Source of the DNA: Candidatus Omnitrophota bacterium
GTDB lineage: Bacteria > Omnitrophota > Gorgyraeia > Ghiorseimicrobiales > Ghiorseimicrobiaceae
Assembly (NCBI GenBank): GCA_030681595.1
Contig: JAUXSB010000003.1
Location: 159,207-223,206 of the forward strand
Length of the DNA: 64,000 nt
Direction: 5' to 3'
Position numbers and translations under genes: made by a program. Below are positions 3,497 to 55,604 of this stretch, piece after piece. The stretch's first letter is position 1. The number at the start of each line of letters is the position of its first letter. The notes below the pieces were generated by a model. The model was not told the DNA's origin and made no database searches. It worked only from the letters and a program-made list of their open reading frames with translations.

Positions 3497-3551
3497 GGCG
3501 CCGAAATACCTTATTTCGGCATCCACCATGCATTTCATTAATGAAATGCAT
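3497..3551 (-). terminator. Two adjacent hairpins immediately 3' of the tmRNA. One is the perfect 24-nt palindrome ATGCATTTCATTAATGAAATGCAT at 3528-3551; the other is GCCGAAATA..TATTTCGGC at 3497-3520. They are likely the tmRNA terminator or processing stems.
   Basis: Perfect inverted repeats abutting the CCA end of ssrA, just before the amidase start. Confidence 0.5.
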
Positions 3552-3971
3552 GGTGGAGGTGCGCGGAATCGAACCGCGGTCCCTAAGCATCGCAATATTA
3601 GCCTCTACATGTTTAGTTTTACCTTTTAATCTTGCCCAAAATTACTTCGGTAAACGGAATCAATCAAGGGCCAGCCTTTTACGGTTTTGCTCTAGCGCCA
3701 AAGGCAGAACGCTAAAGCTATCCTGCTTACGACGCCTGGCCCCACCCCACAGGCAGGGAGGGCAGACGGGTTACCGTATGAAGGGTAACGCTTGTGGAAC
3801 CATTGACATCACAGGCCTAACGACTTCAATAGAAGCCATCAGCTTGTTAAATGTCAATGTCTCTGCTGGTTTTTCAGCATTTGTGTTTTGCAAGGCTTTT
3901 TAACGAGGCCTGCCTTGCCACCCCGACATGCCACCAATACTACTTTGCCTAAGTCGAAACCTTTCACCCCC
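3551..3971 (-). ncRNA. ssrA: tmRNA (SsrA), one-piece. The tag-peptide reading frame could not be delimited with confidence.
   Basis: The reverse complement starts GGGGGUGAAAGGUUUCGAC... and ends ...GGUUCGAUUCCGCGCACCUCCACCA. This gives a tRNA-like T-arm and an acceptor stem with a G3-U pair (Ala identity). smpB lies 160 nt downstream. Confidence 0.85.
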
Positions 3972-4110
3972 TTAATGAATCCCGAAGCTTCGGGACGAAT
4001 TAATCCCGTTGAGTGTGTCAAAATTATAGACCCTCTGGAATTTCTTTGAAATTCCGAGGACTTAGTCCCTGAAATTGCTTCGCAATTTCTAGGGGCGAAA
4101 CGGGACAATT
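3972..4110 (-). repeat. Structured intergenic repeat, family 1, copy A. It contains the CCCGAAGCTTCGGG palindrome plus the GGAATTT..AAATTCC and GGACTTAGTCC hairpin modules.
   Basis: Shares about 40 nt (ccctctggaatttc..gaaattccgaggacttagtccc) with copy C at 22975-23020, and the CCCGAAGCTTCGGG hairpin with copies B and C. Confidence 0.7.
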
Positions 4111-4130
4111 TACAATTAACGACACATCAG

Positions 4131-4589
4131 TTATTTTTGCCTTCCCCTCATCACTCGCTTTATCTCCAAATCTACTTCACGTTTTTTTATCGTCTCTCTT
4201 TTGTCGTAAACGTTTTTACCTTTGGCTACGCCCAGCTCGACTTTAGCAATACCGCGTGAATTAAAATAAATTTTAAGCGGTATAAGCGTAAAACCCTTTT
4301 GGCTAACCGCTCCTGCCAATTTGTTAATCTCGTTTTTATGCAACAGGAGCTTCCTTACCCGCAAACTTTCAGTTCTAAACGCCCCGGTCTTTTCGTATTG
4401 GGCTATATGCGTATTATATAAGAATACCTCGCCGTTATCAATACGGGCAAAGCTCTCCGCCAAAGACGCCTTACCTTCCCTTAACGACTTAACTTCCTGC
4501 CCCATAAGTTCAATACCGCATTCTATCTTTTCAGAGATATGATAGTCGTGATAAGCCTTCCTATTGGAAATTGACGCTACGCTATCCAT
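4131..4589 (-). CDS. smpB: SsrA-binding protein SmpB.
   Basis: NRKAYHDYHI motif, and it is adjacent to the tmRNA. Confidence 0.9.
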   Translation of the reverse strand: MDSVASISNRKAYHDYHISEKIECGIELMGQEVKSLREGKASLAESFARIDNGEVFLYNTHIAQYEKTGAFRTESLRVRKLLLHKNEINKLAGAVSQKGFTLIPLKIYFNSRGIAKVELGVAKGKNVYDKRETIKKREVDLEIKRVMRGRQK

Positions 4590-6576: not shown

Positions 6577-6655
6577 AATAAGAAGTTATAAATTATAAAT
6601 TATGCGTTATAAGTTTAAAAACTCAAGAAACTCATCACTTATAACTTCTAACTCA
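6577..6655 (-). repeat. AT-rich heptad-periodic spacer element, family 3 (TTATAA-rich, containing AACTCATCACTT twice).
   Basis: Shares the AACTYATCACTT..TTATAA motifs with the leuB and leuC upstream spacers at 32645-32721 and 34681-34764. Confidence 0.55.
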
Positions 6656-8228: not shown

Positions 8229-9092
8229 CTATAAAATAGTTTTCCCGTTATCTCTAACGGGGGTTCCTTTATAGCTAACAGTGATATGCCTTCCGTCTTC
8301 TAATTCTACGAGCGCCGTACCCTTTAAAGGATTAACGCTTAATACGCTGCCTTTTCCTTCAGGTAAAACGACTTTAGCGCCTTCTTGAGGAAGGCCGAGC
8401 GATAGGTCTTTGTAAGTCTTGTATTCATAGGATAAACAGCACATTAAGCGGCCGCATAAGCCGGAAATCTTCGGCGGGTTTAAAGGTAAATTCTGCTCTT
8501 TTGCCATCTTAATTGTAACCGGCTCAAATTCCTTTAAGAACTTGGCACAGCACAGCCCCCTTCCGCATGGGCCGAAGCCTCCGAAAATCTTTGCCTCATC
8601 CCGCACGCCGATCTGCCTGAGTTCGATACGCGTCTTAAATAAATGCGCCAAATCCTTAACTAATTCCCGAAAATCTACCCTGCCTTTTGCGGTAAAATAA
8701 AATATGAGCTTGGTGCGGTCAAAAGAATATTCCGCGTCCACCAGCTTCATATCTAATTTATGTTCTTCAATCTTTTTTGTGCAGGAAGAGAATACCTCTT
8801 TCGCTTTTTGTTTGTTTTGCTGAATTTGCTTTATATCCTGCGGCGTTGCCAAGCGTAAAACTTTCTTTATGCCGTCTTCTAACTTTTCCTTAGGCCTTTC
8901 CTTTAAATGTACAGGAAGACCCGCCCTTGCAGGACTAGAAAGTATTTCCGGATCAGTAACAACCTGGCCATAATCAATGCCCCTGTCCGCTTCTACAATC
9001 ACGTAATCATCGGCCTTAAGGGTAATTTTATCAAAAATAAAATACAGAGTCTGCCCTGCTTCCCGCAGGCGCACTTGCACTACGTTTTGCAT
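8229..9092 (-). CDS. ricT: PSP1 C-terminal domain protein (RicT/YaaT-like).
   Basis: Follows holB as in Bacillus (holB-yaaT). It has a PSP1-like core and Cys-rich segments. The gene ends with a TAG stop, which shows TAG is an ordinary stop in this genome. Confidence 0.7.
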   Translation of the reverse strand: MQNVVQVRLREAGQTLYFIFDKITLKADDYVIVEADRGIDYGQVVTDPEILSSPARAGLPVHLKERPKEKLEDGIKKVLRLATPQDIKQIQQNKQKAKEVFSSCTKKIEEHKLDMKLVDAEYSFDRTKLIFYFTAKGRVDFRELVKDLAHLFKTRIELRQIGVRDEAKIFGGFGPCGRGLCCAKFLKEFEPVTIKMAKEQNLPLNPPKISGLCGRLMCCLSYEYKTYKDLSLGLPQEGAKVVLPEGKGSVLSVNPLKGTALVELEDGRHITVSYKGTPVRDNGKTIL

Positions 9093-10114
9093 AATTTTAT
9101 CCTCGTTAAGCTAGTAAGCAGCCTTAGATTAATATTCCTTTCTAAATAAAATAACGCTTTATAGATAAACCCGATACAGTCTTTTAATTCGGGTATACTG
9201 TAGCTATCCTTATTTTTCATAAGATACGCCTCCTTATCTATGTTAATTAAAGTCGGGCGGGCCTTAAGCTTAAGTAACAGCAAATCCCTAAACCAGCTTA
9301 AAAACAAATTCAGCTTATACTGCGCGTCATGCCTATCCCTAAAATCTATCCTTTTATAAATAAAATCTTCAATTAACGAGTTCTTTTCCCTTAAAATATC
9401 TTTATCTTTTATTTCAAGTGCTAAAGCCAGCCTGCCCTGTGAAAAACAGCTCAAAAAATGCGCCTTCTTCTCGTCTAAGTGATAGCATTCCATTAATATT
9501 TCTTTCATCTCTTCTAAAGCCAAGGCATTGAATTTTATCCTGCGGCAGCGGGAAAGAATAGTTGCGGAAAGTAATTTTTCGTTGGCGCTGACAAGAATAA
9601 AAATAGTATCTTTCGGAGGCTCTTCCAAAGTTTTAAGCAGGGCATCCGATGCTTCCTGCGTCATATTCTCTGCCTGATCAATAATAAATACCTTGTATTT
9701 TGCCTCATACGGCCTAAAAGCGCTTCTTTTTTCCATCTCCTTAACCTGCTCTATTTTTATAGCCCTGCTTGCCTCTTTTTTACCTAAAAGGCTGGTTTCC
9801 GCATCCTTTTCTGCCTCTGAGGTAATTAAAAATACGTCCGGGTGCTGCAAACTGTCTATTTTTTTGCAACTCGGGCACTCACCGCAAGAATCATCTAAAG
9901 CCTGGTTTACCCCGTTTGAAATAGTCCCGCCATTCGGCGGAACGTCATTTCGAACGGGGCAATTAATAAACTTAGCAAAATTCAACGCGGTCATTTTTTT
10001 GCCGATTGCTTCCGGACCGCTGAATAAATACGCAGAGGCAAGCCGATTATTCCTTAAATTCTCCAGCAAGCTCCTAATCTGAACGCTATGGCCTTTTATA
10101 TCACTGAAAGACAT
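9080..10114 (-). CDS. holB: DNA polymerase III delta-prime subunit.
   Basis: AAA+ clamp-loader fold (GPEAIGK) and a Cys zinc module (CGECPSCKK). Confidence 0.8.
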   Translation of the reverse strand: MSFSDIKGHSVQIRSLLENLRNNRLASAYLFSGPEAIGKKMTALNFAKFINCPVRNDVPPNGGTISNGVNQALDDSCGECPSCKKIDSLQHPDVFLITSEAEKDAETSLLGKKEASRAIKIEQVKEMEKRSAFRPYEAKYKVFIIDQAENMTQEASDALLKTLEEPPKDTIFILVSANEKLLSATILSRCRRIKFNALALEEMKEILMECYHLDEKKAHFLSCFSQGRLALALEIKDKDILREKNSLIEDFIYKRIDFRDRHDAQYKLNLFLSWFRDLLLLKLKARPTLINIDKEAYLMKNKDSYSIPELKDCIGFIYKALFYLERNINLRLLTSLTRIKLCKT

Positions 10115-10752: not shown

Positions 10753-12122
10753 GTTGTGCCTTCTTTTGTATCTTCTAAAATTATGCCTTTTTGCTCTAAT
10801 TCCTTACGGATTTTATCGGAAAGGGCAAAATTTTTATTCGCGCGCGCGCTGTTTCTTTCTAATATTTTTGCTTCTATCTCAGTATCAAAAATTTCTTCTT
10901 TTTTTAAGGATATCTTGAATATACCCAATAGCTCCGACAATACGCGCTTGGCCGGCAAAATAAAATCCGTATTTTCTATATTCTTATTAGCGGCATTTAC
11001 CAAATCAAAGATTGCTGCCAGCCCCTGCGGTGTATTGAAATCATCATCCATCGCCTCGATAAATTTATTTTTAATTTCTTCTATTTCCGTATTTTTTTTA
11101 CTTGATACTTGATACTTGATACCTGATACCTTTTTTTCTATCTTATCAATCAATATCGCAATCCGCTCTAATGCCTTTTTCGCCTCTTCTATTTTTTCTT
11201 CCGTGTAGTCTATGGGATGCGAATAATGCGCCGATAAAAAGAATAATTTTAATAAATCCGCGTTTTTATATTTAGCGATAAAATCTTTAATGGTAATAAA
11301 ATTCCCCAACGACTTAGCCATTTTTTGAGCATTAATCGTCAAAAGGCCGTGGTGAATCCAATAATTAGAAAAAGGCTTACCAGTGAGCGCCTCTGCCTGG
11401 GCGAGCTCATTTTCATGGTGGGGGAAAATCAGGTCGCGCCCTCCGGCATGGATATCCAGCGTCTCGGACTTTAAAAACTTCTGACTCATCACCGAACACT
11501 CTATATGCCATCCGGGGCGGCCCTTGCCCCAAGGACTATCCCAGAATGGCTCATCAGGCTTAGACATCTTCCATAAAGCAAAATCCAACGGGTCTTTTTT
11601 GGTCTCATCCGATTCTTTACGTACACCGCTAAACATCTCTTTTATTGCCTGGCCGGATAATTTACCGTAATCATTAAATTTACGCACGCTGAAATATACG
11701 CCGGTTTCAGTAACATAGGCATACCCCTTATTTATCAAAACCTCAATGTATTTAATCATTTCAGGGATATTTTCCGTAGCGCGCGGCTCACAATCCGCTT
11801 CACTAATCCCTAAAGCCGCTAAATCTTCGTAATATCTGGAAATATATTTTTCCGACAACCCCTTCCAATCAACTTTAAGCTCCTTCGCGCGGTTAATAAT
11901 CTTATCGTCAATATCGGTAATATTGCGTACAAAGTTAACTTTAAAACCGCGGTATTCTAAATAACGCCGCATTAGGTCAAAGATATAAAGGCTTCGGGCG
12001 TGGCCAATATGGCAGTCATCATAAACAGTTACGCCACAGGTATAGATATTAACTTTTGGCGGGGATAGCGGAACAAATTTCTCTTTTTTACGGGTGAGGG
12101 AATTATAGATATAAATTGGCAT
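10734..12122 (-). CDS. cysS: Cysteinyl-tRNA synthetase.
   Basis: HIGH (HIGHARS) and KMSKS motifs. An in-frame heptamer array lies at 11098-11130. Confidence 0.9.
   Translation of the reverse strand: MPIYIYNSLTRKKEKFVPLSPPKVNIYTCGVTVYDDCHIGHARSLYIFDLMRRYLEYRGFKVNFVRNITDIDDKIINRAKELKVDWKGLSEKYISRYYEDLAALGISEADCEPRATENIPEMIKYIEVLINKGYAYVTETGVYFSVRKFNDYGKLSGQAIKEMFSGVRKESDETKKDPLDFALWKMSKPDEPFWDSPWGKGRPGWHIECSVMSQKFLKSETLDIHAGGRDLIFPHHENELAQAEALTGKPFSNYWIHHGLLTINAQKMAKSLGNFITIKDFIAKYKNADLLKLFFLSAHYSHPIDYTEEKIEEAKKALERIAILIDKIEKKVSGIKYQVSSKKNTEIEEIKNKFIEAMDDDFNTPQGLAAIFDLVNAANKNIENTDFILPAKRVLSELLGIFKISLKKEEIFDTEIEAKILERNSARANKNFALSDKIRKELEQKGIILEDTKEGTTWRRKI
11098..11130 (-). repeat. In-frame heptanucleotide tandem array (CTTGATA x3 + CCTGATA) inside cysS, flanked by poly-T runs. 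It encodes VSGIKYQVSS.
   Basis: Direct 7-nt periodicity is visible in the sequence. The same GATACTTG motif appears in the ispD duplication. Confidence 0.7.
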
Positions 12123-12126
12123 ATTA

Positions 12127-12166
12127 CTCGCTTCATGCTACAAGCTACAAGCTTCAAACCTGTAGC
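12127..12166 (-). repeat. Heptad-periodic leader element, family 2 (GCTTCAT GCTACAA GCTACAA GCTTCAA ... CCTGTAGCC), immediately upstream of the cysS start.
   Basis: Related to the element upstream of asd at 31511-31584, with shared gcttcatgc..caagcttcaa..cctgtagcc. Confidence 0.6.
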
Positions 12167-13365: not shown

Positions 13366-14154
13366 TTACCGCTTAATCCCTGCCTGCCGGCAGGCAGGCT
13401 TAACCCTCTTTGCTATCACCTCTGCAAACACCAAATCTTCCGGAGTAGTAATTTTTATATTAAAATATGAGCCTTCGCAAACTCTAACTTTATAGCCTAA
13501 TTTTTCTACCAAATAGGCATCGTCAGTCGCATCCAAATTCTTAAATTTATTATGGGCTTTTATTATTAAGTCCCGCCTAAAAACCTGCGGCGTCTGTATC
13601 TCCCAGATATTTCTTCTATCTAAAGTTTTATCAACAAAAATATTCTTTTTCTCGATACTTGCCTGCCCCGAAGCATCCGGGGATACTTGCCTGCCCCGAA
13701 GCATCCGGGGATACTTGATACTTTTAATCGTTGGCTTTAGAGGAACCCCGGCAATACAGGCACCGCAATCCTGTGCGCCCGAAACTACGCGGGAAATAAT
13801 CTCGCCAGTCACAAACGGGCGCGCTGCGTCGTGAATTAAAACAAAGTCGGTATCTTTATCTAAAAGTTTTAAGCCTGCTGCAACCGAATCCCTGCGCGTC
13901 TTCCCGCCGCGCCTTACACACTTCACCTTAGAAAGCCCATCTGCTTCTATTAACCTTCTGACCTTCGCTAAATTCTTATTATGCGCAAGGACTATAATTT
14001 TAGAAATAGCCGCATTCCTGCTTAATACCCTTAACGCGCGAATAATAATCGCGCAATCGTCAATACGTACAAACGGTTTAGCAACAGCGGTTTTTAGCCT
14101 TACGCCCAAGCCGGCCGCAGGGACAATCGCTTCTATCTTTACAGGCTTAGGCAT
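13366..14154 (-). CDS. ispD: 2-C-methyl-D-erythritol 4-phosphate cytidylyltransferase.
   Basis: The VPAAGLGVRL N-terminus is IspD-like. It contains a 28-bp tandem duplication. Confidence 0.85.
   Translation of the reverse strand: MPKPVKIEAIVPAAGLGVRLKTAVAKPFVRIDDCAIIIRALRVLSRNAAISKIIVLAHNKNLAKVRRLIEADGLSKVKCVRRGGKTRRDSVAAGLKLLDKDTDFVLIHDAARPFVTGEIISRVVSGAQDCGACIAGVPLKPTIKSIKYPRMLRGRQVSPDASGQASIEKKNIFVDKTLDRRNIWEIQTPQVFRRDLIIKAHNKFKNLDATDDAYLVEKLGYKVRVCEGSYFNIKITTPEDLVFAEVIAKRVKPACRQAGIKR
13657..13712 (-). repeat. 28-bp tandem duplication (GATACTTGCCTGCCCCGAAGCATCCGGG x2) inside ispD. The ORF stays open across both copies, read in different frames.
   Basis: Exact direct repeat. The unit carries CCCCGAAGCATCCGGGG, a near-copy of the family-1 hairpin CCCCGAAGCTTCGGGG. 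Confidence 0.8.
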
Positions 14155-17298: not shown

Positions 17299-17316
17299 GC
17301 CCCACCCCCATTGTAA

Positions 17317-17344
17317 CGTATAGCGTATAGCGTATAGCGTATAG
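17317..17344. repeat. Heptamer tandem array (CGTATAG x4) in the mlaF-mlaD spacer.
   Basis: Exact 7-nt tandem repeat. The same heptamer recurs in-frame in truA at 29799-29828. Confidence 0.8.
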
Positions 17345-17375: not shown

Positions 17376-17465
17376 CCATAAGCCGGTAAGGCAATGGTTT
17401 GGCTTTCCATATAGCCAAAGCCATAAGCCGGTAAGGCAATGGTTTGGCTTTCCATATAGCCAAAG
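17376..17465. repeat. 45-bp perfect direct repeat x2 (ccataagccggtaaggcaatggtttggctttccatatagccaaag), each with an internal GGCTTT..AAAGCC hairpin.
   Basis: Two identical tandem copies. A partial third copy follows. Confidence 0.85.
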
Positions 17466-17495
17466 CCATAACCGCTAAACGCTGAAAATTAAAAC

Positions 17496-18269
17496 TTACT
17501 TAAGGTGCCCAAACACCAAATGTTCCGTTTCAGTAATAGGCCCAACAGCCGCTCCGGTAATAAATTGTTTTACTACCGGGTTATGTGTATTTTTTATTTC
17601 CTCCGGAGTCCCCTCGGCAATGATTTTACCCTGATAAAGCATAGCCATGTGGTCGCCGACTTTATAAGCGCTAGTCATATCATGCGTTACTACTACCGAA
17701 GTTATTTTTAATTTTGCCTGTAATTCCCGGATAAGGTCATTTATGGCATCTGCGGTGATGGGGTCAACCCCTGTAGTCGGCTCGTCATAAAGAATAATCT
17801 GCGGCCGCATGCAGATTGCCCGCGCAAGAGCTACGCGCTTTTTCATCCCTCCGGATAATTCTGAAGGCATAAAATCCTCTATGGCATGCAGGCCCACCAA
17901 GCTTAGCGATTCTTTCACGCGTTCAGCAATAGTTGCCTCATCCAATTCTGTATGTTCGTTTAAAACAAAGGCTACATTTTCGGCAACGGTTAAAGAATCA
18001 AAAAGCGCCCCGCCCTGAAAAACCATGCCTATCTTCATGCGTACTTTATTTAATTCCTTCTCTTTAAGTTTACCTATCGCAACGCCATCAACCTTAATAA
18101 CCCCCGTATCCGGACGAATTAAACCCACGATATGTTTAAGCAAGACCGATTTCCCGCAGCCGGACCTACCGATAATCACCTTAGTCTTTCCCTTTTCTAT
18201 TTTAAGGCCTACGCCATCTAAAACCTTGTGGCTACTAAATGATTTATGTACGCCGATGATTTCTATCAT
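17496..18269 (-). CDS. mlaF: ABC transporter ATP-binding protein MlaF. The start is trimmed to MIEIIGVHKSF.
   Basis: Walker A GRSGCGKS, the LSGGMKKR signature and Walker B ILYDEPT. Confidence 0.85.
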   Translation of the reverse strand: MIEIIGVHKSFSSHKVLDGVGLKIEKGKTKVIIGRSGCGKSVLLKHIVGLIRPDTGVIKVDGVAIGKLKEKELNKVRMKIGMVFQGGALFDSLTVAENVAFVLNEHTELDEATIAERVKESLSLVGLHAIEDFMPSELSGGMKKRVALARAICMRPQIILYDEPTTGVDPITADAINDLIRELQAKLKITSVVVTHDMTSAYKVGDHMAMLYQGKIIAEGTPEEIKNTHNPVVKQFITGAAVGPITETEHLVFGHLK

Positions 18270-18375
18270 AATATCACTTATTACACTGATTTTAGCGGCA
18301 AAAATAATCTGTGTAATCGCTTTTTCCCGCATAGCGGGATCCCGCTTCAACTTAAATGGCTTTGGCAAATTGCGC

Positions 18376-18443
18376 GCCAAACCACTGCCTTCTGGCTTGT
18401 GGCTTTGGCTATATTGAAAGCCAAACCACTGCCTTCTGGCTTG
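18376..18443. repeat. 24-bp direct repeat x2 (GCCAAACCACTGCCTTCTGGCTTG) separated by a TGGCTTTGGCTATATTGAAAGCCA hairpin, in the mlaE-mlaF spacer.
   Basis: Exact repeats. The hairpin resembles the GGCTTT..AAAGCC module of the 17376-17465 repeat. Confidence 0.8.
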
Positions 18444-18476
18444 CAAGTAAGCGGGAAAAATCTGCGCAATCTGCGC

Positions 18477-19261: not shown

Positions 19262-21694
19262 TTATTTCGGCTCAAAAATAAGCTCATCTTTCTTACGCAG
19301 CACTTTGACGCTGCTTGCTCCTTTAATCTTTCCGGAAATAATTTCTTCCGCTAAAGGATCCTCCAGATAACGCTGGATTGTCCTTTTTAAAGGGCGTGCT
19401 CCGTACTGGATGTCAAAGCCCTTTTCAATCAGCAGCTCCTTTGCTTCGGAAGAGACATCAAGGGTAATCTTCTGTTCGGTAAGGCGCTTAGCTAATTCAT
19501 TAAGCTCAATCTCAATTATCCTGTGTAAATCTTCGCGCGCAAGAGACCTGAATACTATTATATCATCAATCCTGTTTAAAAATTCGGGTTTGAATATACG
19601 CTTGACTTCATCAAGAAGCTTATTCTTCATATCCTGATAAGTAACTTCTTCGCCCTGAGACTTAAAACCCAAGGAACCTTGTTTGCGTAAAATTTCAGTC
19701 CCTATGTTAGAAGTCATAATAATAATAGTATTCCTGAAATCGACCTTTCTGCCGAAGCTGTCGGTAAGGCGGCCGTCTTCAAAAACCTGAAGCAATAAAT
19801 TAAAAACATCCGGATGCGCTTTTTCAATTTCATCTAAAAGAATTACCGCATAAGGGCGGCGCCTTACTTTCTCGGTAAGCTGCCCTCCTTCTTCATAACC
19901 GACGTATCCTGGAGGCGCGCCGATCAGGCGCGAAACATTAAATTTTTCCATATATTCAGACATATCAATTTGAATTAAAGCATTTTCATCACCGAACATA
20001 AACTCGGTAATAGTACGGGCAAGGAGAGTCTTACCGACGCCGGTCGGCCCCAGAAAAATAAACGAACCAATGGGCCGGCGCGGATCCTTAATACCGGCGC
20101 GCGAACGCCGGATCGCCCGGGCAATAGATGTAATTACCTCCTCTTGCCCTACCACCCGCTCTTTAATTTTTCCTTCGATATGCATCAGGCGCTCCGACTC
20201 TTTTTCCTCAAGGCGAATAACCGGAATCCCTGTCCATTGCGAAACAATAGCGGCAATGCTTTCTGTGTTTATCTGCGGGCGCATCTGATCGCGCTCCTGG
20301 ATCCATTTTTTATTAAGATTTTCCAAGTCGGCCCTTACCTTCTTCTCCTCGTCTCTTAATGAGGCGGCCTTTTCAAAATCCTGCGAACGGACCAAACTTT
20401 CTTTCTCTTTCTTAAACTGCTCTAATTTCTGTTCTGAATCTTTTATTTCTTTCGGGGCGGTAAGTACTTTTAATCTTGCGTGCGAACCGGCCTCATCAAT
20501 TAAATCAATGGCTTTATCCGGCAAAAACCTGCCGGTGATATACCTATCTGAAAACTTCGCCGCCGCCTCTAAAGATTCATCAAGAAATTCAACGCGGTGG
20601 TGAGCTTCGTACCTGTCACGCAGGCCCCTTAAAATTTCAATAGTCTGCTCAACCGTAGGCGGCTCGACAAATATTGTCTGAAACCGCCTTTCCAGCGCCG
20701 CATCCTTTTCGATGTGTTTTCTATATTCACCCAAGGTCGTAGCACCTATACATTGTATTTCGCCCCGCGACAAAGCAGGCTTTAAAATACTGGCAGCATC
20801 AATTGCCCCTTCGGCAGCACCCGCTCCCACCAAAGTATGCAGTTCATCTATAAAAATAATTACCTCTTTAGAACGTTTAATTTCATCCATTACCGCCTTG
20901 ATTCTCTCTTCGAACTGGCCGCGGTATTTAGTGCCGGCAACCATCAAAGCCAGATCCAAAACAATAATTCTTTTATTATGTAAAACTTCGGGGACGTTTC
21001 CGCTGACTACCGCCTGTGCCAACCCTTCAACAATAGCTGTCTTTCCCACGCCGGCTTCGCCTAAGAGCACCGGATTATTCTTAGTGCGCCGGCTTAAAGT
21101 TTGAATAACGCGGTTAGTTTCATTCTTACGGTTGACCACCGGGTCTAATTTCCCTTCCTTGGCCAGAGCGGTTAAATCACGTCCAAAAGCATCCAAGGCC
21201 GGAGTTTTTGTCTTGGTCTCAGGCCCGCCGCTCACTCCAAAACCCGGAGTAGCAGAACCTAATATATCCATTATTTCCTGCCTGACCCTTTCCAAGTCCA
21301 GGCCTAAATTAATCAACACCTGAAAAGCCACGCCTTCACCGTCACGGATAAGGCCCAAAAGAATATGTTCCGTACCGATATAATTATGCCCCAAAGACCT
21401 TGCTTCCTCCGCGGAAAGCTCAAGTGCCTTCTTTGACCGGGGAGTAAAGGGAATATCGCCTAAAATCTGAGTTGTCGGCCCGGGTTTTACTAATTTTTCT
21501 ACCTCTATCCTTATCGTTTCAAGGCTTAAGCCCATCTTCTGCAGCACCGCCGCCGCCACCCCTTCACCTTCACGTATAAGGCCCAAAAGAATATGTTCCG
21601 TACCGATATAATCATGATTAAAACGCCTGGCTTCCTCTTTTGCCAGAATAATTACTTTTCTTGCCCTTTCAGTAAAACGATTAAACATTGCCAT
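19262..21694 (-). CDS. clpC: ATP-dependent Clp protease ATP-binding subunit ClpC. The start is trimmed to MAMFNRFTERARKV.
   Basis: Duplicated Clp_N repeats, two AAA+ modules (GEAGVGKT, GPTGVGKT) and a UVR motif. GAGGAG lies 8 nt upstream of the ATG. Confidence 0.9.
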   Translation of the reverse strand: MAMFNRFTERARKVIILAKEEARRFNHDYIGTEHILLGLIREGEGVAAAVLQKMGLSLETIRIEVEKLVKPGPTTQILGDIPFTPRSKKALELSAEEARSLGHNYIGTEHILLGLIRDGEGVAFQVLINLGLDLERVRQEIMDILGSATPGFGVSGGPETKTKTPALDAFGRDLTALAKEGKLDPVVNRKNETNRVIQTLSRRTKNNPVLLGEAGVGKTAIVEGLAQAVVSGNVPEVLHNKRIIVLDLALMVAGTKYRGQFEERIKAVMDEIKRSKEVIIFIDELHTLVGAGAAEGAIDAASILKPALSRGEIQCIGATTLGEYRKHIEKDAALERRFQTIFVEPPTVEQTIEILRGLRDRYEAHHRVEFLDESLEAAAKFSDRYITGRFLPDKAIDLIDEAGSHARLKVLTAPKEIKDSEQKLEQFKKEKESLVRSQDFEKAASLRDEEKKVRADLENLNKKWIQERDQMRPQINTESIAAIVSQWTGIPVIRLEEKESERLMHIEGKIKERVVGQEEVITSIARAIRRSRAGIKDPRRPIGSFIFLGPTGVGKTLLARTITEFMFGDENALIQIDMSEYMEKFNVSRLIGAPPGYVGYEEGGQLTEKVRRRPYAVILLDEIEKAHPDVFNLLLQVFEDGRLTDSFGRKVDFRNTIIIMTSNIGTEILRKQGSLGFKSQGEEVTYQDMKNKLLDEVKRIFKPEFLNRIDDIIVFRSLAREDLHRIIEIELNELAKRLTEQKITLDVSSEAKELLIEKGFDIQYGARPLKRTIQRYLEDPLAEEIISGKIKGASSVKVLRKKDELIFEPK

Positions 21695-21707
21695 TACTGT
21701 TCTCCTC

Positions 21708-21800
21708 AATGAGCCCCGAAGCTTCGGGGCGAATTGATCCCGATAACAACAAAAAAATTTGGAACAAATTTTGAAGTGCTTTGTTATCGGGACAATCAAC
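21708..21800 (-). repeat. Structured intergenic repeat, family 1, copy B, in the clpC 5' UTR. It has the CCCCGAAGCTTCGGGG hairpin, the CCCGATAACAA..TTGTTATCGGG stem, and the AAAATTTGGAACAAATTTT palindromic core followed by GAAGTGCT.
   Basis: The core and hairpin are shared with copies C and D. The element fills the whole mcsB-clpC spacer, from the stop to the SD. Confidence 0.75.
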
Positions 21801-21842: not shown

Positions 21843-22889
21843 TTATCCTAACCTGCTCCTGATTAATGCGGCGCGTTTAACATCGCGTTCTTGAGCCGAC
21901 AATTTTTTTGCCTCAATCTTCTGCAGGTGCGCCGGCTGAGTCAATATAAAAAGTTCATTTATCAACCTACGGTCAATATTTTTAATGATACCGAGGTCCT
22001 GTCCCAGCCTTAGCATTGAAAGCATTTCTATTGTTTCCGCGCTGTTGATAATATAGGCACTTTTTAAAATACCGAAGGCGCGGTAAATGCGGTCCTCTAA
22101 AATCTGGCGGTTATTCTGCATTAACGCGCTCCTTGCCATATTCTCCTGCTCAACAATCTGCCGGATTATAGCCTTGATATTCTCGATAATTTCTTCTTCA
22201 TTCTGCCCTAAAGATACTTGATTGGAAATCTGAAAAAAATTTCCGGCGGCCTGCGTTCCTTCACCGTAAAGCCCGCGGGTAGCAAAAGATAACTTGGTAA
22301 TTGCCGCCAAAACTTTATTTATCTGCTTAGTCATTACTAAAGCCGGCAAATGGAGCATTACCGAACCGCGCATTCCCGTCCCTACATTTGTCGGACAGGC
22401 TGTCAAATACCCTAATTCATCAGAAAAAGCAAACGGCAATCCTTTAGATAAAGAGGTGTCGATATTATTAATAATATTATTTGCTTCTGACAAATCAAGC
22501 CCGGATTTCATCACCTGTATACGCAGATGATCCTCCTCATTAACCATAATAGAGGCTATTTCTTCCTCGCTGATTACTACCGCTTTGTTTTCGGACTTAA
22601 GCGCATGCTCATGGCTCATCAAATGCCTCTCTACAAGAAACTGCTTATCTATATTGTCTAATTCGGAAAGTTTTAAATAAATACTCTTTTTTAAATACTC
22701 ATTTTCTCCTGCCGCCTTAAGCACAATCTCCATAGTACGCTCTCCCTGTTTTTTATTTGCCCAATGCGGGAAAGGCACTTTATCTAAGTTCCGGGCAAGC
22801 CTGATACGGCTTGAAATAACAATATCCGAATCAGGCCCGGTTCCTTTAAGCCATTCGGTAGTCTGTTTAAGCAGGTCGTTTAGCTGCAT
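21843..22889 (-). CDS. mcsB: Protein arginine kinase McsB (ATP:guanido phosphotransferase family).
   Basis: Phosphagen-kinase catalytic domain (C..TNVGTGMRGSV). Located between mcsA and clpC. Confidence 0.85.
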   Translation of the reverse strand: MQLNDLLKQTTEWLKGTGPDSDIVISSRIRLARNLDKVPFPHWANKKQGERTMEIVLKAAGENEYLKKSIYLKLSELDNIDKQFLVERHLMSHEHALKSENKAVVISEEEIASIMVNEEDHLRIQVMKSGLDLSEANNIINNIDTSLSKGLPFAFSDELGYLTACPTNVGTGMRGSVMLHLPALVMTKQINKVLAAITKLSFATRGLYGEGTQAAGNFFQISNQVSLGQNEEEIIENIKAIIRQIVEQENMARSALMQNNRQILEDRIYRAFGILKSAYIINSAETIEMLSMLRLGQDLGIIKNIDRRLINELFILTQPAHLQKIEAKKLSAQERDVKRAALIRSRLG

Positions 22890-22897
22890 ATCAAACT

Positions 22898-23075
22898 TCT
22901 CCTCAATGAGCGCATAATCCCGAAGCTTCGGGATTATTTGCGCGAATTGATGCCGAAAGCTACGAGAAAATTTGGAACCCTCTGGAATTTCACAAAGTGA
23001 AATTCCGAGGACTTAGTCCCGAGGAATTCTTTCGAATTCCTCGGGGCAAATTTTCAAGTGCTATGCTTTCGGTTT
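22898..23075 (-). repeat. Structured intergenic repeat, family 1, copy C, in the mcsB 5' UTR. It is the core with a roughly 70-nt hairpin-module insertion between GGAAC and CAAATTTT.
   Basis: gcgcataatCCCGAAGCTTCGGGattatttgcgc hairpin, GAAAATTTGGAAC...CAAATTTTCAAGTGCT core, and the inserted GGAATTTCAC..GTGAAATTCC / GGACTTAGTCC / GAGGAATTC..GAATTCCTC hairpins. Confidence 0.75.
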
Positions 23076-29628: not shown

Positions 29629-30365
29629 AATCCTCTGGCGGGAGCCGTGGGACCAAGAAGATTTCTTTTCCTGGTACGCAATATTTCACGCACAACATCC
29701 GGCTTGGCTTTTCTTTTCCCTATCTCAAGCAAAGTACCCACTATGGAACGTACCATGTTATAGAGGAAACCGTCGGCAGTGATATCTATGGCAATCAACG
29801 TATAGCGTGAAGCGTATAGCGTATAACTAACTTTCTTTATGGTTATCCTGCTGATATTTTTAATGGTATTTTTTACGGATGATCCGGATGCACAAAACGC
29901 GGCAAAGTCATGCCTGCCTAAAAGTATTTTTGTGGCTTGGCGCATTTTGCTCAAATCTAATTTATAAGAAAAACGGTACGTATAATTACGCAGCAGTGCC
30001 GACGGATAATCCTGGCTTAAAATTAAATAACGGTAGGTTTTTGACTTGGCGGAAAAACGCGCATGGAAACCTAAAGGCGCATCTTCGGCATCCGAAATAG
30101 AAATGTCTTCAGGCAACAAGCTATTTAACGCTTTTCGGATATTTTCGGGGGAGATTTTAGAATTAGTGTTAAAATTCGCGGTTTGTCCGAACGCATGAAC
30201 CCCTGAATCAGTCCTGCCGGAGGCAATAAGATTCATTTTTTCCTGAAGAATCTTAGCAAGGGCCGCTTCTATTGTTTCTTGGATTGTACGGCGGGTATTT
30301 TTTTGTTTCTGCCAACCGGCATAATTTGTGCCGTCGTATTCTATGACTAATTTGATATTACGCAT
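29604..30365 (-). CDS. truA: tRNA pseudouridine(38-40) synthase TruA.
   Basis: MRNIKLVIEYDGTNYAGWQ N-terminus and the catalytic GRTDSGVHA motif. Confidence 0.9.
   Translation of the reverse strand: MRNIKLVIEYDGTNYAGWQKQKNTRRTIQETIEAALAKILQEKMNLIASGRTDSGVHAFGQTANFNTNSKISPENIRKALNSLLPEDISISDAEDAPLGFHARFSAKSKTYRYLILSQDYPSALLRNYTYRFSYKLDLSKMRQATKILLGRHDFAAFCASGSSVKNTIKNISRITIKKVSYTLYASRYTLIAIDITADGFLYNMVRSIVGTLLEIGKRKAKPDVVREILRTRKRNLLGPTAPARGLCLLKVTY
29799..29828 (-). repeat. In-frame heptamer array (CGTATAG CGTGAAG CGTATAG CGTATAA) inside truA. It encodes SYTLYASRYTL.
   Basis: 7-nt periodicity. The same CGTATAG heptamer occurs in the intergenic array at 17317-17344. Confidence 0.7.
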
Positions 30366-31495: not shown

Positions 31496-31510
31496 ATAGT
31501 TCTTCTCAAT

Positions 31511-31584
31511 CCTGCTTCATGCTTCAAGCCGCAAGCTTCAAGCTTTAAACTTTTTTGCCTGTAGCCTACAACATGTAGCTTGCA
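31511..31584 (-). repeat. Heptad-periodic leader element, family 2 (GCTTCAT GCTTCAA GCCGCAA GCTTCAA GCTTTAA ... GCCTGTAGCCTACAACATGTAGCTTGC), upstream of asd.
   Basis: Shares its motifs with 12127-12166 and contains the palindrome GTAGCCTACAACATGTAGC. Confidence 0.6.
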
Positions 31585-32644: not shown

Positions 32645-32721
32645 CCTCACATTCCTTTTAGAATTTATAAGTTAGAGGTTATGAATTATAAATTAAAAAC
32701 TTATAACTTATCACTTATAAT
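32645..32721 (-). repeat. AT-rich heptad-periodic spacer, family 3, upstream of leuB (TTATAA-rich; AACTTATCACTT).
   Basis: Shared with 6577-6655 and 34681-34764. Confidence 0.55.
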
Positions 32722-33387: not shown

Positions 33388-34680
33388 TTAACCCACTACC
33401 TCATCCGGATGCGCAATCCTGCCTTTTACCGCGCTTGCCGCAGCCACCGCCGGATTGGATAGATACACTTCGCTTTTTAAATCTCCCATCCTGCCGACAA
33501 AATTCCTGTTAGTTGTAGCAAGGCAGCGTTCACCCGCGGTTAAAATTCCGGCATGCCCGCCTAAGCAAGGGCCGCAAGTAGGCGTTGTTACTACTGCGCC
33601 TGATTTTACAAAGATATCAATCAGGCCTTCCTTAATTGCCTGTAAGTATATATTCTGTGTTGCCGGTATCACAATACAACGTGTATAAGGATTAACTTTT
33701 CTCCCCTTTAAAATTTTTGCGGCCAGGCGTAAATCCGAAATCCTTCCGTTGGTACAAGAACCTATTACCACCTGATCTAATTCTATATTACTTAATTGCC
33801 TTACCTGCTTAACATTGCTGGGAAGATGCGGGCAGGCAACCAAAGGCCCTATCTTCGAAACATCATATTCCTTGATTTGCGCATAAATAGCATCTTTATC
33901 GGATTTTAGATTTTTGAATTTTGAATTGTAATTTTGCCTTTTGCCTTTTACCTTTTGCGTTTCTTTGACATAGTTAAAGGTCGTCTCATCCGGCTCAATT
34001 ATCCCGGACTTTCCGCCGGCTTCAATCGCCATATTGCACATAGTAAATCTGTCATCCATCGGCAGGCTGCTAATTACATCGCCGCTAAATTCCATTGCCC
34101 GATAGGCAGCGCCGTCAACGCCGATATCGCCTATTGTATGCAAAATTAAATCCTTACCACCGACCCATTTATTTAATTTGCCATAAAAAATAAATTTTAT
34201 TGTTTCCGGGACCCTCAACCATACCCGTCCAGTTACCCAAGAAGCGGCTAAATCAGTCGAGCCAACACCGCTGGAAAATGCGCCTAATGCGCCATAAGTA
34301 CAAGTATGAGAATCGGCTCCAATAACTAAATCTCCGGGGCCAACTAAACCTAATTCCGGAAGAAGCGCATGTTCAATACCCATACGGCCCACTTCATAGT
34401 AATGCTTAATTTTATATTTTGCGGCAAAATCTTTTAATATTTTTGCCTGTTGCGCGCTCTTTTTATCCTTTGCCGGAACAAAATGATCGGGAACTAAAAC
34501 AATCTTATCTTTGATTGCCGGATTAATCCCTAATTTTTCAAATTCCTCTATGGCTAAGGGCGCGGTAATATCATTGCCTAAAGATAAATCTACCTTTGCC
34601 CAGATAAATTCACCTACCCGAATATCTTTCTTATCAGGCGTGTGAGCCAATAATATTTTTTCAGTAATTGTGTAAGGCAT
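33388..34680 (-). CDS. leuC: 3-isopropylmalate dehydratase large subunit (LeuC, about 430-aa type).
   Basis: Aconitase-family Fe-S ligand cysteines (..CTNGR.., ..TCGPCLG..). Confidence 0.8.
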   Translation of the reverse strand: MPYTITEKILLAHTPDKKDIRVGEFIWAKVDLSLGNDITAPLAIEEFEKLGINPAIKDKIVLVPDHFVPAKDKKSAQQAKILKDFAAKYKIKHYYEVGRMGIEHALLPELGLVGPGDLVIGADSHTCTYGALGAFSSGVGSTDLAASWVTGRVWLRVPETIKFIFYGKLNKWVGGKDLILHTIGDIGVDGAAYRAMEFSGDVISSLPMDDRFTMCNMAIEAGGKSGIIEPDETTFNYVKETQKVKGKRQNYNSKFKNLKSDKDAIYAQIKEYDVSKIGPLVACPHLPSNVKQVRQLSNIELDQVVIGSCTNGRISDLRLAAKILKGRKVNPYTRCIVIPATQNIYLQAIKEGLIDIFVKSGAVVTTPTCGPCLGGHAGILTAGERCLATTNRNFVGRMGDLKSEVYLSNPAVAAASAVKGRIAHPDEVVG

Positions 34681-34764
34681 GTAATATCTAAGTTAGAAGT
34701 TATGAATTATGAGTTACAAGTTATGAGTTAAAAACTAATAACTTATCACTTCTCATTCATAACT
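34681..34764 (-). repeat. AT-rich heptad-periodic spacer, family 3, upstream of leuC. It has six tandem TAACTYN heptads and can fold as a long imperfect hairpin.
   Basis: In the mRNA sense it reads TAACTCA TAACTTG TAACTCA TAATTCA TAACTTC TAACTTA, preceded by GTTATGA-type heptads complementary to them. Confidence 0.6.
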
Positions 34765-36000
34765 TCACTTGAATTTTTTTACTACTAAAGTGGCGTTATG
34801 CCCGCCAAAACCCAATGAATTAGACATCGCCACTTCTACTTTTGTGTTGCGGGCTTTATTAGGTACGTAGTCTAAATCGCACTCAGGGTCAGGATTTTCG
34901 TAGTTGGTTGTAGGCGGGATAATATCATTTTTTATAGCTAAAGCGCAGATAACAAACTCGATTCCTCCGGCCGCGCCCAATAAATGTCCGGTCATGGATT
35001 TCGTAGAACTTACCGCTATTTTTTTAGCGTATTCACCGAATAATTTCTTAATGGCTAAAGTTTCAATCCGGTCATTAAGCAATGTGGATGTTCCATGAGC
35101 ATTTATATAAGAAACATCTTTGGGCAAAATACGCGCGTCTTTTAAAGAAAGTGCCATCGCTCTTACTGCACCGTCAGCGGTTGAATCAGGTGCCGTAATA
35201 TGATAGGCGTCTCCGCTCATGCCGTAGCCGACAATCTCGGCATATATTTTTGCCTTACGTTTTAAAGCATGCGGTAGCGACTCTAACAACACAACTCCCG
35301 AACCCTCAGACATAACAAAGCCGTCTCGGTCGCGGTCAAAAGGCCTGCTTGCTTTCTCCGGCTCATTATTTCTCTTAGAAAGCGCCTTTAAAGCACAGAA
35401 TCCACCGATGCCCAGATACGTAATCGCACTTTCCGTGCCTCCGGCAAGCATTAAATCGGCATCGCCCCTTTGAATTATCTTAAAGGCATCTCCTACAGCA
35501 TGCGAACCTGAAGCACAGGCAGTCGCAACGCAGGAATTCGGCCCTTTAAAACCTAAATCTATTGATATGTGCCCCGCTGCCTCGTTAACAATAAGCATCG
35601 GGATAAGAAACGGGGACAGCCTTGAGGGGCCCTTTTCAAGATAAACTTTAAACTGTTCTTCTATTATATGCAAGCTTCCTATGCCCGAACCAACAACAAC
35701 ACCCGCGCGGTTTTTATCTATTGCGGATGAATCTAGTCCCGCATCATTAAATGCTTCTCTTGCCGCGGCCACCGCATACTGCACAAATTTATCTACATGC
35801 CTTACTTCTTTCGCGGAGAAATACTTTAAAGGATCAAACCCTTTTACCTCCCCGGCAATCTGCGAATCAAAAGCTGAGGCATCAAAAACAGTAATCCTAC
35901 CTATACCGCTTTTGCCGGCAAGTAAATTTTCCCATAGGGTTTTTGTATCATTTCCTAACGGCGATATGCTGCCTAGCCCCGTAATAACTACTCTTTCCAT
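34765..36000 (-). CDS. fabF: 3-oxoacyl-ACP synthase II.
   Basis: KAS II active-site Cys (ATACASG) and His/His motifs. Confidence 0.9.
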   Translation of the reverse strand: MERVVITGLGSISPLGNDTKTLWENLLAGKSGIGRITVFDASAFDSQIAGEVKGFDPLKYFSAKEVRHVDKFVQYAVAAAREAFNDAGLDSSAIDKNRAGVVVGSGIGSLHIIEEQFKVYLEKGPSRLSPFLIPMLIVNEAAGHISIDLGFKGPNSCVATACASGSHAVGDAFKIIQRGDADLMLAGGTESAITYLGIGGFCALKALSKRNNEPEKASRPFDRDRDGFVMSEGSGVVLLESLPHALKRKAKIYAEIVGYGMSGDAYHITAPDSTADGAVRAMALSLKDARILPKDVSYINAHGTSTLLNDRIETLAIKKLFGEYAKKIAVSSTKSMTGHLLGAAGGIEFVICALAIKNDIIPPTTNYENPDPECDLDYVPNKARNTKVEVAMSNSLGFGGHNATLVVKKFK

Positions 36001-36338: not shown

Positions 36339-36492
36339 TTTTTTCCTCCTTAAATAACGCTACAGCCTACGCCATCCCGACAATCGTTCTGGCGATAGAT
36401 ATTAACAATGCAAGCTGCCCGTCGGGATTTAACCTTTGACACTCGAAATTCCCAATGTCAAAGATAAGTTTCCCCGCTTACGGCGGGGTCAC

Positions 36493-37320: not shown

Positions 37321-38259
37321 CTAATTTAAAATGTCTTCCGCCTTTTCTATATTCGCTACCTCTAAACTTGGTTCTATTTTCCTTAAAATACCTTTGAGGG
37401 TCTTACCCGGCCCAATCTCAAAAAATCTCTTTACCCCTTGCGCCAACATAAAACGTACCGAATCCTCCCAAAGCACCGAAGATTTTACCTGTAAAGCAAG
37501 CTTTGCGCGCATGTCCTCAATTGAGACAAACGGCTTAGCCGTAACATTGCTAATTACCTCGGGATGTGGCATCCTAAAAGCGGTTTTTTCTAGAATTCCC
37601 CCCAACTTTATGCTTGCTTCTTCCATTAATGTAGAATGGAATGCGCCGCTGATCCCCAATTCTATCAGGCGCTTTGCGCCTTTTGCTTGGGCCAAAACAG
37701 AGAATTTATCTACATTTTCTACGTTACCGGTAACCACCACCTGTCCCGGGCAATTAAGATTAGCGATTTCGTTTCCCGCCTCTTTAGATAAATTCTTTAC
37801 CGTTTCCAAATCAAGGCCTAGCACTGCCACCATTTTACCGGGATATTTTTGTGCAGCTTGGCTCATCAGTTCTGAACGCTTTTTAACCAATACGAGTGCA
37901 TCGTCAAACTTTATCGCCCCGCAGGCAACCAATGCCGAATATTCCCCTAAACTTAGGCCCGCAGCATACCTGACACCTGCCTGTCCCACCACAGGTGGGG
38001 ACACTTGACACTTAACACTTGTCTTCAGCGCTTCAAATGCGGCAATACTCGTTACTAAAATTGCGAGCTGGCAATTATTAGTTTGAGTAAGCGCATCCAA
38101 TGGGCCATCAAAACATAATTTAGACAAATTAAAACCTAAAACTTCATCTGCTCTGTCAAAGACCTGTTTTGCTTGAAGATATCTCTCATATAAATCCCTG
38201 CCCATACCCACATATTGCGCGCCTTGGCCGGGAAAAATATAAGCAATGTTTTCTACCAT
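37321..38259 (-). CDS. fabD: Malonyl-CoA:ACP transacylase.
   Basis: GLSLGEYSAL active-site motif. Confidence 0.9.
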   Translation of the reverse strand: MVENIAYIFPGQGAQYVGMGRDLYERYLQAKQVFDRADEVLGFNLSKLCFDGPLDALTQTNNCQLAILVTSIAAFEALKTSVKCQVSPPVVGQAGVRYAAGLSLGEYSALVACGAIKFDDALVLVKKRSELMSQAAQKYPGKMVAVLGLDLETVKNLSKEAGNEIANLNCPGQVVVTGNVENVDKFSVLAQAKGAKRLIELGISGAFHSTLMEEASIKLGGILEKTAFRMPHPEVISNVTAKPFVSIEDMRAKLALQVKSSVLWEDSVRFMLAQGVKRFFEIGPGKTLKGILRKIEPSLEVANIEKAEDILN

Positions 38260-41584: not shown

Positions 41585-41643
41585 ACCAGATACCTGTTTC
41601 CAGACACCGGAATATATAAATCTGGTTACTGGTTACTGGTTAC
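41585..41643. repeat. Family 4 heptad element (aaccagatacctgtttccag...ctGGTTACTGGTTACTGGTTAC), overlapping the rsmD stop.
   Basis: TGGTTAC x3 tandem array. Related to 37255-37303. Confidence 0.65.
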
Positions 41644-55389: not shown

Positions 55390-55512
55390 ATGACGACACG
55401 AGTTATAAGATCCGCCGTAGGCGGAGACGTAACTCGCATGTCGGAATTGATACCGACAGCTACAAAGAAAATTTGGAACAAATTTTTGCAGTGTTTTGCT
55501 GTCGGTATATAC
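55390..55512 (-). repeat. Structured intergenic repeat, family 1, copy D, in the 5' UTR of the zinc-ribbon gene. It has the ATACCGACAGC..GCTGTCGGTAT stem, the GAAAATTTGGAACAAATTTTTGCAGTGTT core and a CCGCCGTAGGCGG hairpin.
   Basis: Core identical to copy B over AAAATTTGGAACAAATTTT. The architecture is hairpin, core, then SD. Confidence 0.7.
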
Positions 55513-55604
55513 TTTTACTAATCGCTATCTTTATAAATACGCCGGATTGCTGCTTAGAATAAATCTTTTTATTATTATACACCCTAAATTTATAAGGTCA
55601 ACGC

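Follow-up and report, generated by a model that had tools for sequence, protein, structure and literature searches.

We analysed a tandem repeat inside ispD, the gene for 2-C-methyl-D-erythritol 4-phosphate cytidylyltransferase, in a stretch of 64,000 nucleotides (nt) from a Candidatus Omnitrophota bacterium (the window, which always means this whole stretch; L-numbers denote the loci of relatives and other assemblies compared with it). The repeat probably represents two adjacent copies of a dispersed 21-nt hairpin element, set at the junctions of ARGTRTC heptamers. Modules of the same architecture were detected at heptamer junctions in other genes and genomes, with filled and empty alleles at ispD, cysS and fabD, and their stems carry compensatory changes. 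We infer that the module is mobile, and it seems to rank among the smallest known mobile DNA elements.

The ispD tract and its filled and empty alleles

Tandem Repeats Finder (TRF) detected a period-28 array at 13654-13717 (2.3 copies, 100% matches, score 128), and the span 13657-13712 of the original prediction lies inside it. Exact copies of the 28-mer GATACTTGCCTGCCCCGAAGCATCCGGG stand at 13654-13681 and 13682-13709, with part of a third, GATACTTG, at 13710-13717; in 100 dinucleotide shuffles the 28-mer had no match. The translation of the ispD open reading frame (ORF) over the repeat contains IKSIKYPRMLRGRQVSPDASGQASIEKKN, and the exact tandem copies are read in two reading frames, as had been predicted. 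Read on the coding strand, the tract is AAGTATC AAGTATC [M] AAGTATC [M] AAGTATC, with M standing for the module CCCGGATGCTTCGGGGCAGGC; the full reading is ACGATTAAA AGTATCA AGTATC[CCCGGATGCTTCGGGGCAGGC]A AGTATC[CCCGGATGCTTCGGGGCAGGC]A AGTATCG AG. The parts are as follows.

13366..14154, minus strand: ispD, intact ORF of 262 aa that hosts the insert
13654..13723, minus strand: composite tract of 70 nt, made up of four AAGTATC heptamers and two 21-nt modules, the latter at junctions 2/3 and 3/4
13710..13723, minus strand: heptamers 1 and 2 (AAGTATC AAGTATC), upstream of module 1
13689..13709, minus strand: module copy 1, starting at codon position 2 and encoding PRMLRGR
13682..13688, minus strand: heptamer 3 (AAGTATC), separating the two modules
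13661..13681, minus strand: module copy 2, same sequence as copy 1, starting at codon position 3 and encoding PDASGQA
13654..13660, minus strand: heptamer 4 (AAGTATC), downstream of module 2

The module has 21 nt (7 codons) and consists of a 15-nt hairpin and the tail RCAGGC. In ispD the 6-bp stem CCCGGA/TTCGGG, one G·T pair included, encloses a 3-nt loop, and copy 2 was matched by the covariance model of the family with 53 bits. The original prediction took 28 bp as the meaningful unit, which did not hold: the apparent 28-nt unit is a composite of the 21-nt module and one 7-nt heptamer of a pre-existing four-heptamer tract. The two copies are read in two frames because this one heptamer stands between them. 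The modules are 7 codons each and the frame of the empty allele is kept, so that a 28-nt unit not divisible by three no longer poses a puzzle. The 70-nt tract as a whole encodes KSIKY-PRMLRGR-QVS-PDASGQA-SIE.

The product was identified as IspD by Pfam (PF01128, E 1.2e-54, match in two stretches), and is 100% identical to an NCBI protein of a Candidatus Omnitrophota metagenome-assembled genome (MAG) on a 307-kb contig. Alignment with canonical IspD gave about 20 extra residues, in agreement with the insertion that the original prediction had considered. The B. subtilis enzyme (5ddt) covers residues 8-147 and 172-248 in the alignment, to either side of the insert, and has no counterpart of residues 148-171 (~24 residues); among 21 IspD relatives there are 37 invariant columns, and the flanking and catalytic-core residues are conserved. 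In the AlphaFold model (mean predicted local distance difference test, pLDDT, 83) the insert, residues 148-172, is an unstructured loop with pLDDT <50 at 150-169, joining strands 142-147 and 173-179 of one β-hairpin. The insert is thus predicted to be a disordered loop linking two strands of a β-hairpin, which we take to be the dimerisation arm of the E. coli structure. All 63 ORFs of a crude gene map of the window (1-64000) are on the minus strand, with a coding density of 92%.

Comparison with other loci separated the modules from the heptamers. At ispD, L006 has four heptamers and no module, and its TIK...LDR segment measures 75 nt vs 117 nt in the window, a 42-nt difference. The L006 gene is called with 170 aa and was considered as a pseudogene; this was rejected, since the reading frame is uninterrupted and the call is short because of a run of N at the 5' end. 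L005 and L007 have four heptamers each and a single 21-nt element, CCTGCCTTGCCGGCAGGCAGG at junction 2/3 in L005 and CCCGCCTATGGCGGGACAGGC at junction 3/4 in L007. Two further genes of the window have comparable tracts.

11099..11131, minus strand: empty cysS tract AGGTATC AGGTATC AAGTATC AAGTATC AAGTA, encoding VSGIKYQVSS
37965..38020, minus strand: filled fabD tract AAGTGTT AAGTGTC AAGTGTC [CCCACCTGTGGTGGGACAGGC] AGGTGTC AGGTATG, module at 37979-37999

The heptamer that the original prediction reported as common to ispD and cysS (TACTTGA/GATACTT) was detected in the window cysS in 4.4 copies at 11099-11129 (TRF). The closest relative (L004 and L018, loci of one 218-kb contig with ~82-87% amino-acid identity, depending on gene and method) has at cysS AGGTGTC x3 [CCTCCTTCCGGGAGGACAGGC] AGGTGTC, one module at junction 3/4 and an exact 7-aa insertion. 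In L013 the cysS tract holds two identical modules at junctions 1/2 and 2/3 with one heptamer between them, the same build as the ispD doublet of the window, from a different sample and assembly. The L013 cysS is 100% identical to L006 over 74 nt upstream of the tract and shares variants of the window lineage within and downstream of it (L013 300-520); this mosaic suggests that the filled tract was moved between lineages by homologous recombination in L013.

The fabD tract (ORF 37321-38259) encodes VKCQVSPPVVGQAGVRY, directly upstream of the GLSLGEY motif, and before this motif the window FabD has 11 residues more than solved FabD structures. L018 (84.5% DNA identity to the window) has five heptamers and no module at fabD, and in L019 (72.5% DNA identity) the junction that is filled in the window (3/4) holds CCCACCTGCGGCGGGACAGGC. 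The fabD modules of the window and L019 are identical at 19/21 positions, vs only 50% at the third codon positions of the gene, and the window and L018 are sisters relative to L019. Either the module was lost precisely in L018, or the window and L019 gained similar modules at one junction.

In all, over 10 alleles of the three genes, the heptamer number is constant at each gene, and 0, 1 or 2 modules stand at junctions 1/2, 2/3 and 3/4. The allele lengths always differ by 21 or 42 nt and never by 28, and these exact gains and losses at heptamer junctions show no target duplication. The two genomes are reciprocal in this respect: in the window, ispD and fabD have modules and cysS has none, and in L004/L018 the cysS tract has a module and the fabD tract has none. 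Slippage of heptamers as a means of phase variation was judged unlikely, the hosts being housekeeping genes and the heptamer number invariant across alleles.

These alleles bear on local replication slippage as the sole origin of the repeat, with tandem duplication of a 28-bp segment that has GATACTT(G) microhomology at its boundaries, and with no mobile element taking part. The copies are identical, head to tail, with 100% matches over 2.3 copies and direct repeats of 7-8 nt at the boundaries, the heptamer tracts are slippage-prone with period-7 runs strongly enriched, and L013 has another 28-nt doublet. We consider this origin unlikely all the same, because a +28 step would frameshift a gene presumed to be essential, and the observed step is +42 against the empty allele with the heptamers still four. 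The 21-nt core is found in other genes and genomes, so that at least the first copy is not local in origin, and the second is explicable by slippage only with the loss of one heptamer. The original prediction had regarded the sequence as mobile or templated, and this reading, as against ordinary coding sequence, was supported.

A frameshift or assembly problem in ispD had been suspected as well, the true gene having one copy, none or a frameshift. The sequence comes from a MAG, short exact tandem repeats can be miscounted, and the exact IspD protein is present on only one contig. We found such an artefact extremely improbable: the ORF is open, IspD aligns on both flanks of the insert and folds, and the tract exceeds the empty allele by exactly 42 nt. 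One 28-nt unit more or less would break the frame that the observed number keeps. The doublet of the same build in L013 comes from an independent sample and assembler, and alleles with a single module or none are present in other assemblies.

The module family and its proposed movement

We found nine distinct module variants, all of 21 nt, at six sites (ispD, cysS, fabD, a 351-aa ORF in L015, a 341-aa ORF in L014, and L016). Four of the nine came from a metagenome scan with the pattern GTRTCCC-N11-GGRCAGGCARGTRTC, which leaves the inner 11 positions free and gave four further loci, L013, L014, L015 and L016. The L015 module, in an unrelated ORF, differs by 1 nt from the L013 cysS module, both coming from one sample. 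The L014 contig has a module in the 341-aa ORF and an empty tract in a helicase gene; this UvrD-like helicase, related to the window ORF 47981-50899, holds 5.4 AAGTATC units (KKYQVSSIKYQ; L014 2680-2717, plus strand). Every module copy has ARGTRTC units on both flanks and stands exactly at a heptamer junction.

All variants have the 15-nt hairpin (6-bp stem, 3-nt loop) and the RCAGGC tail. Among 8 distinct sequences the stem cells are paired in 91.7% vs 68.9±4.7 in shuffles, none of 500 shuffles reaching the observed value; 4 of the 6 stem pairs have changed on both sides, and slid registers pair only 37-54%. The covariance model recovered the L019 copy, which was not in the training set, with 51 bits, and gave no other strong match in 194 kb beyond the known members. 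In two variants the sense strand has G·T pairs where the opposite strand would have C·A mismatches, which hints weakly that it is the sense strand that folds, as RNA or single-stranded DNA.

Depending on the copy, the first base of a module falls on codon position 1, 2 or 3, and the encoded peptides are unrelated (IPACVGA, PRMLRGR, PPASGQA, PDASGQA). All three codon phases being used, it is therefore the nucleic acid that is conserved and not the peptide. This bears on the explanation that the insert is a selected protein feature, a functional extension of the IspD β-hairpin loop. Extra residues are present at this loop in many Omnitrophota IspD proteins, and the inserts are always in frame. 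Such selection is highly improbable: one DNA module in three phases gives unrelated peptides, it recurs in the unrelated proteins CysS and FabD and in two unnamed ORFs, and different lineages have unrelated inserts at an IspD loop that is predicted to be disordered.

The AAGTATC repeat has no stop codon in the three sense frames, and antisense GATACTT brings one TGA per unit, three units closing every frame. The tracts inside ORFs are always sense-oriented because the antisense heptamer brings these stop codons; hence their orientation is no evidence for strand-specific chemistry.

The original prediction also connected the repeat to a family of intergenic hairpins of the window (family 1, CCCCGAAGCTTCGGGG), and the module could be such a hairpin that jumped into the gene. 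The resemblance is literally true for the ispD variant, which has CCCCG...GCTTCGGGG in common with family 1, apart from one substitution and one indel; in the ungapped 16-mer, CCCCGAAGCATCCGGG(G) and CCCCGAAGCTTCGGGG have two mismatches. The 9-nt identity GCTTCGGGG may be a trace of templating, and is shared with family 1 by the ispD variant only. No link was found at the level of the families. The family-1 hairpins (at 3980, 21714 and 22918, upstream of the genes for transfer-messenger RNA (tmRNA), clpC and mcsB) have conserved 5' leaders of the form ...ATCAATTCG-[hairpin]-CTCATTGAGGAG-ATG and variable stems, and lack the RCAGGC tail and the heptamer flanks. The other eight module variants keep the architecture and have no resemblance to the GAAGCTTC core, and the covariance model gave no match at the family-1 sites. 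We therefore regard this origin as very unlikely.

Searches elsewhere for the module were negative within their scope. The module pattern gave no match in a scan of viral contigs, BLASTN of the ispD tract against plasmids gave none, and an Rfam scan of the window returned the tmRNA and two tRNAs only, with nothing at the repeat. A Logan contig (run SRR13727519), found by its identical neighbouring protein and extending the right edge of the window by 3.7 kb, has no module, and the protein at the left edge gave no match. A synthetic peptide query of heptamer tract and module in three frames, run against 5.8 billion proteins, retrieved only long AAGTATC-type arrays called as small hypothetical ORFs, a result that does not bear on the modules. 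Two module-like matches of the window, at 41592-41612 and 36466-36490, resemble terminator hairpins and were left out of the family.

We propose that the heptamer tract would serve as a landing site, into which 21 nt would enter exactly and from which they would probably leave exactly. Insertion would proceed without target duplication and leave the heptamer number unaltered. Events of 21 nt without heptamer change would therefore be frame-neutral and tolerable in surface loops of essential enzymes. Two routes can be envisaged. A dedicated enzyme might act on the single-stranded hairpin and insert it 3' of GTRTC, as in IS200/IS605 or REP/RAYT chemistry, or the module might be copied from one heptamer-flanked site to another, the heptamers providing short homology. 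The second ispD copy could have arisen from the first by conversion between sister copies one heptamer out of register, adding 21 nt in one step; alternatively, a 28-nt slippage duplication followed by the loss of one heptamer would lead to the doublet via a frameshifted ispD. We favour the out-of-register conversion.

Several points weigh against a mobile element. No enzyme and no donor copy was identified in the 64 kb of this genome. The ispD and fabD modules of the window differ at 9/21 positions, and recent transposition within this genome is therefore not demonstrated, the adjacent identical pair apart. Slippage of 28 nt together with the loss of one heptamer could account for the ispD doublet, and L018 fabD could have become empty by recombination with an empty allele instead of excision. 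The covariation set has just 8 sequences, 4 of which were preselected with CC...GG ends and the tail fixed, so that only the inner four stem pairs are a fair test, the outer two being fixed by the search pattern. The family is also small, the strict pattern having only 4 matches in 241 million metagenome records.

Heptamer tracts and other hairpin mini-elements

Heptamer tracts are characteristic of the window beyond the module sites. Six exact period-7 tandem runs were counted vs 0.07 expected (~90-fold over shuffles), and each of the other periods (5, 6, 8-12) gave 0 or 1 exact runs, with no enrichment; heptamer tracts are common in the relatives too. The tracts belong to several families and are mostly intergenic (6581-6653, 12130-12157, 17312-17344, 29799-29825, 31510-31553). 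More were detected at 32657-32718, 33902-33956, 34698-34751 and 41622-41644, some being inverted arrays (34696-34766).

Among 40 orthologue pairs of the window and L004/L018, there are four internal indels of 4 aa or more, and every one is a hairpin mini-element: a palindrome in the ispD tail, the modules of cysS and fabD, and a hairpin of 48 nt in holB. The last is a near-perfect in-frame hairpin of 16 codons at 9908-9955 (minus strand; RNA fold -35 kcal/mol) in the gene for DNA polymerase III delta' (9080-10114), and is missing in the closest relative, L004. The palindrome of the ispD tail is the following.

13379..13398, no strand assigned: 20-nt perfect palindrome CCTGCCTGCCGGCAGGCAGG between GGTTAAG-type heptamers, in the part encoding the IspD C-terminal tail KPACRQAGIKR

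This palindrome is a second mini-element family, related weakly to the module, and the tail that it encodes is predicted to be disordered (pLDDT <50 at residues 253-262). The same 20-mer was found in an unrelated context in L016 (249-268), and another copy of the palindrome lies at 996-1015 in L005. The sole copy internal to an ORF, in the IspD loop of L005 (706-726), is 21 nt long, so it is in frame; the covariance model of the module scores the L005 palindrome weakly (21.7 bits, E 0.03).

Compared across lineages, the IspD loop is a hot spot for such elements. L005 has the CCTGCC palindrome there, L004 and L009 have paired CCGCC hairpins plus AAGGGNN heptamers, and L012 and L010 have a 42-nt hairpin unit in 2.8 and 3.8 copies, respectively (TRF; L012 783-898, L010 4778-4935). 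This unit of 42-45 nt (GGCTTTGGC...GCCAAACC...GGCTTAT) encodes GFGCRLPNHRPLAY repeats in the L010 and L012 loops, its copy number differing between the two related samples. In the window it stands intergenically in 2.3 tandem copies at 17376-17478, and inverted about 1 kb away at 18357-18443, at the start of ORF 17496-18446. In L006 the 8-nt AAAGTGTC is repeated exactly 4.8 times where ispD ends 3' (4128-4165), giving a KVSKCQSVKVSK tail; the repeat is related in sequence to the AAGTGTC heptamer.

The intergenic hairpins of family 1 belong to a leader that reads, in minus-strand sense, CACTTSAAAATTTG-TTCCAAATTTT...TCGGNATCAATTC-[variable GC hairpin]-CTCATTGAGGAG-ATG. Its copies, at 3972-4110, 21690-21800, 22885-23065 and 55400-55610, precede clpC, mcsB and another gene, and the tmRNA gene is preceded by part of the leader.

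3551-3971, minus strand: tmRNA gene (Rfam RF00023, 174.6 bits), with a family-1 hairpin immediately upstream

The mcsB and tmRNA leaders have an extra common block of ~70 nt with three hairpins (22998-23050 and 4047-4099). One possibility is that the family-1 leader is regulatory, another that it is a promoter in which hairpin inserts are nested. In the longest-ORF map, the 5' end of the tmRNA gene and the region before it are covered by an ORF (3854-4108) that is probably spurious.

Related systems and significance

The closest known analogue of the module appears to be the small dispersed repeats (SDRs) of Nostocaceae, likened by architecture and description and not by sequence. The families SDR1-8, reportedly described by Elhai and co-workers in 2008, are said to be dispersed units of 21-27 nt whose hairpin is kept by compensatory changes despite little sequence similarity. 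The same study reportedly found SDRs often embedded in tandem heptamers and left their mechanism unexplained, with a possible involvement of RNA. The module resembles them in its 21-nt length, dispersal at unrelated loci, embedding in heptamers, compensatory stem changes and precise insertion at a fixed point of a repeat. Two later papers describe the precise insertion of SDR5 within HIP1 and report no SDR-like repeat outside Nostocaceae (PMC4390886, PMC5861425). Unlike SDRs, the modules here are exactly 7 codons long, all in protein-coding genes, with a constant RCAGGC tail and ARGTRTC heptamers, and the host phylum is Omnitrophota and not the heterocyst-forming cyanobacteria. The module works like the SDRs and is not without precedent, its host lying outside the taxonomic range by which SDRs are defined.

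The transposition of IS200/IS605 insertion sequences is strand-specific and hairpin-dependent, with no target-site duplication and with insertion 3' of a short specific sequence. As a mechanistic analogy, the module shares with these elements and their miniature derivatives the hairpin, the absence of target duplication and the position directly 3' of GTRTC. They differ in having hairpins at both ends and a length of at least ~100 nt, and no TnpA was identified in the 64-kb window.

The repeat units within ORFs of Borgs are reportedly divisible by three, unlike the apparent 28-nt unit here, a composite of 21 + 7. In Borg elements, recent exact repeats inside ORFs make disordered protein segments (PMC9879509), as does the ispD doublet in its predicted loop. 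Repetitive extragenic palindromic (REP) sequences and REPINs (PMC3116915, PMC3733652) are alike in being imperfect palindromes of 20-40 nt with a conserved unpaired end tag and G·T stem pairs, some of them in ORFs and adding residues. The module tag is RCAGGC (GCCTGY on the other strand) and not GTAG or CGTC, and all modules whose frame can be assigned are in ORFs, as single hairpins or direct doublets and not as extragenic inverted doublets. No RAYT gene turned up in the 64-kb window, the ORFs of which were not scanned for PF01797. Rickettsia palindromic elements are described as selfish hairpin repeats standing in frame at surface positions of conserved essential proteins (PMC3733652), which is similar; they are ~100-150 bp long, have no heptamer landing tract and belong to a different clade. 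The short tandemly repeated repetitive (STRR) heptanucleotides of the cyanobacteria Calothrix and Nostoc (heptamer excess in bacteria, PMC4692102) are likewise abundant intergenic and intragenic tandem heptamers of few families, and the tracts here differ in having 4-5 units, a fixed length across related genomes and a role as hosts for a 21-nt module. A full-text literature search for Omnitrophota with heptamers or tandem repeats gave no description of such elements.

SDRs were regarded as exclusive to Nostocaceae, and their movement has lacked an explanation since 2008; the modules add a second lineage, from another phylum. The evidence is unusually clean, with exact 21-nt filled and empty sites at three housekeeping genes, fixed heptamers, insertion at junctions only and compensatory stems. 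It also provides a comparative handle, as genes common to both lineages and missing in their relatives are candidates for the enzyme. A stronger proposal, which we hold to be possible and rather doubtful, is that this Omnitrophota clade has dedicated machinery that moves 21-nt modules into and out of ARGTRTC junctions without target duplication and perhaps also makes the tracts, a second independent SDR/heptamer system. If this is true, the modules would be the smallest known codon-neutral mobile elements, able to colonise essential genes, and comparison of the two phyla could reveal the enzyme.

Taken together, hairpin mini-elements are the source of most of the protein length variation between close genomes in this lineage, which matters for annotation, for the interpretation of odd low-complexity loops in MAG proteins and for avoiding false calls of frameshift or misassembly.

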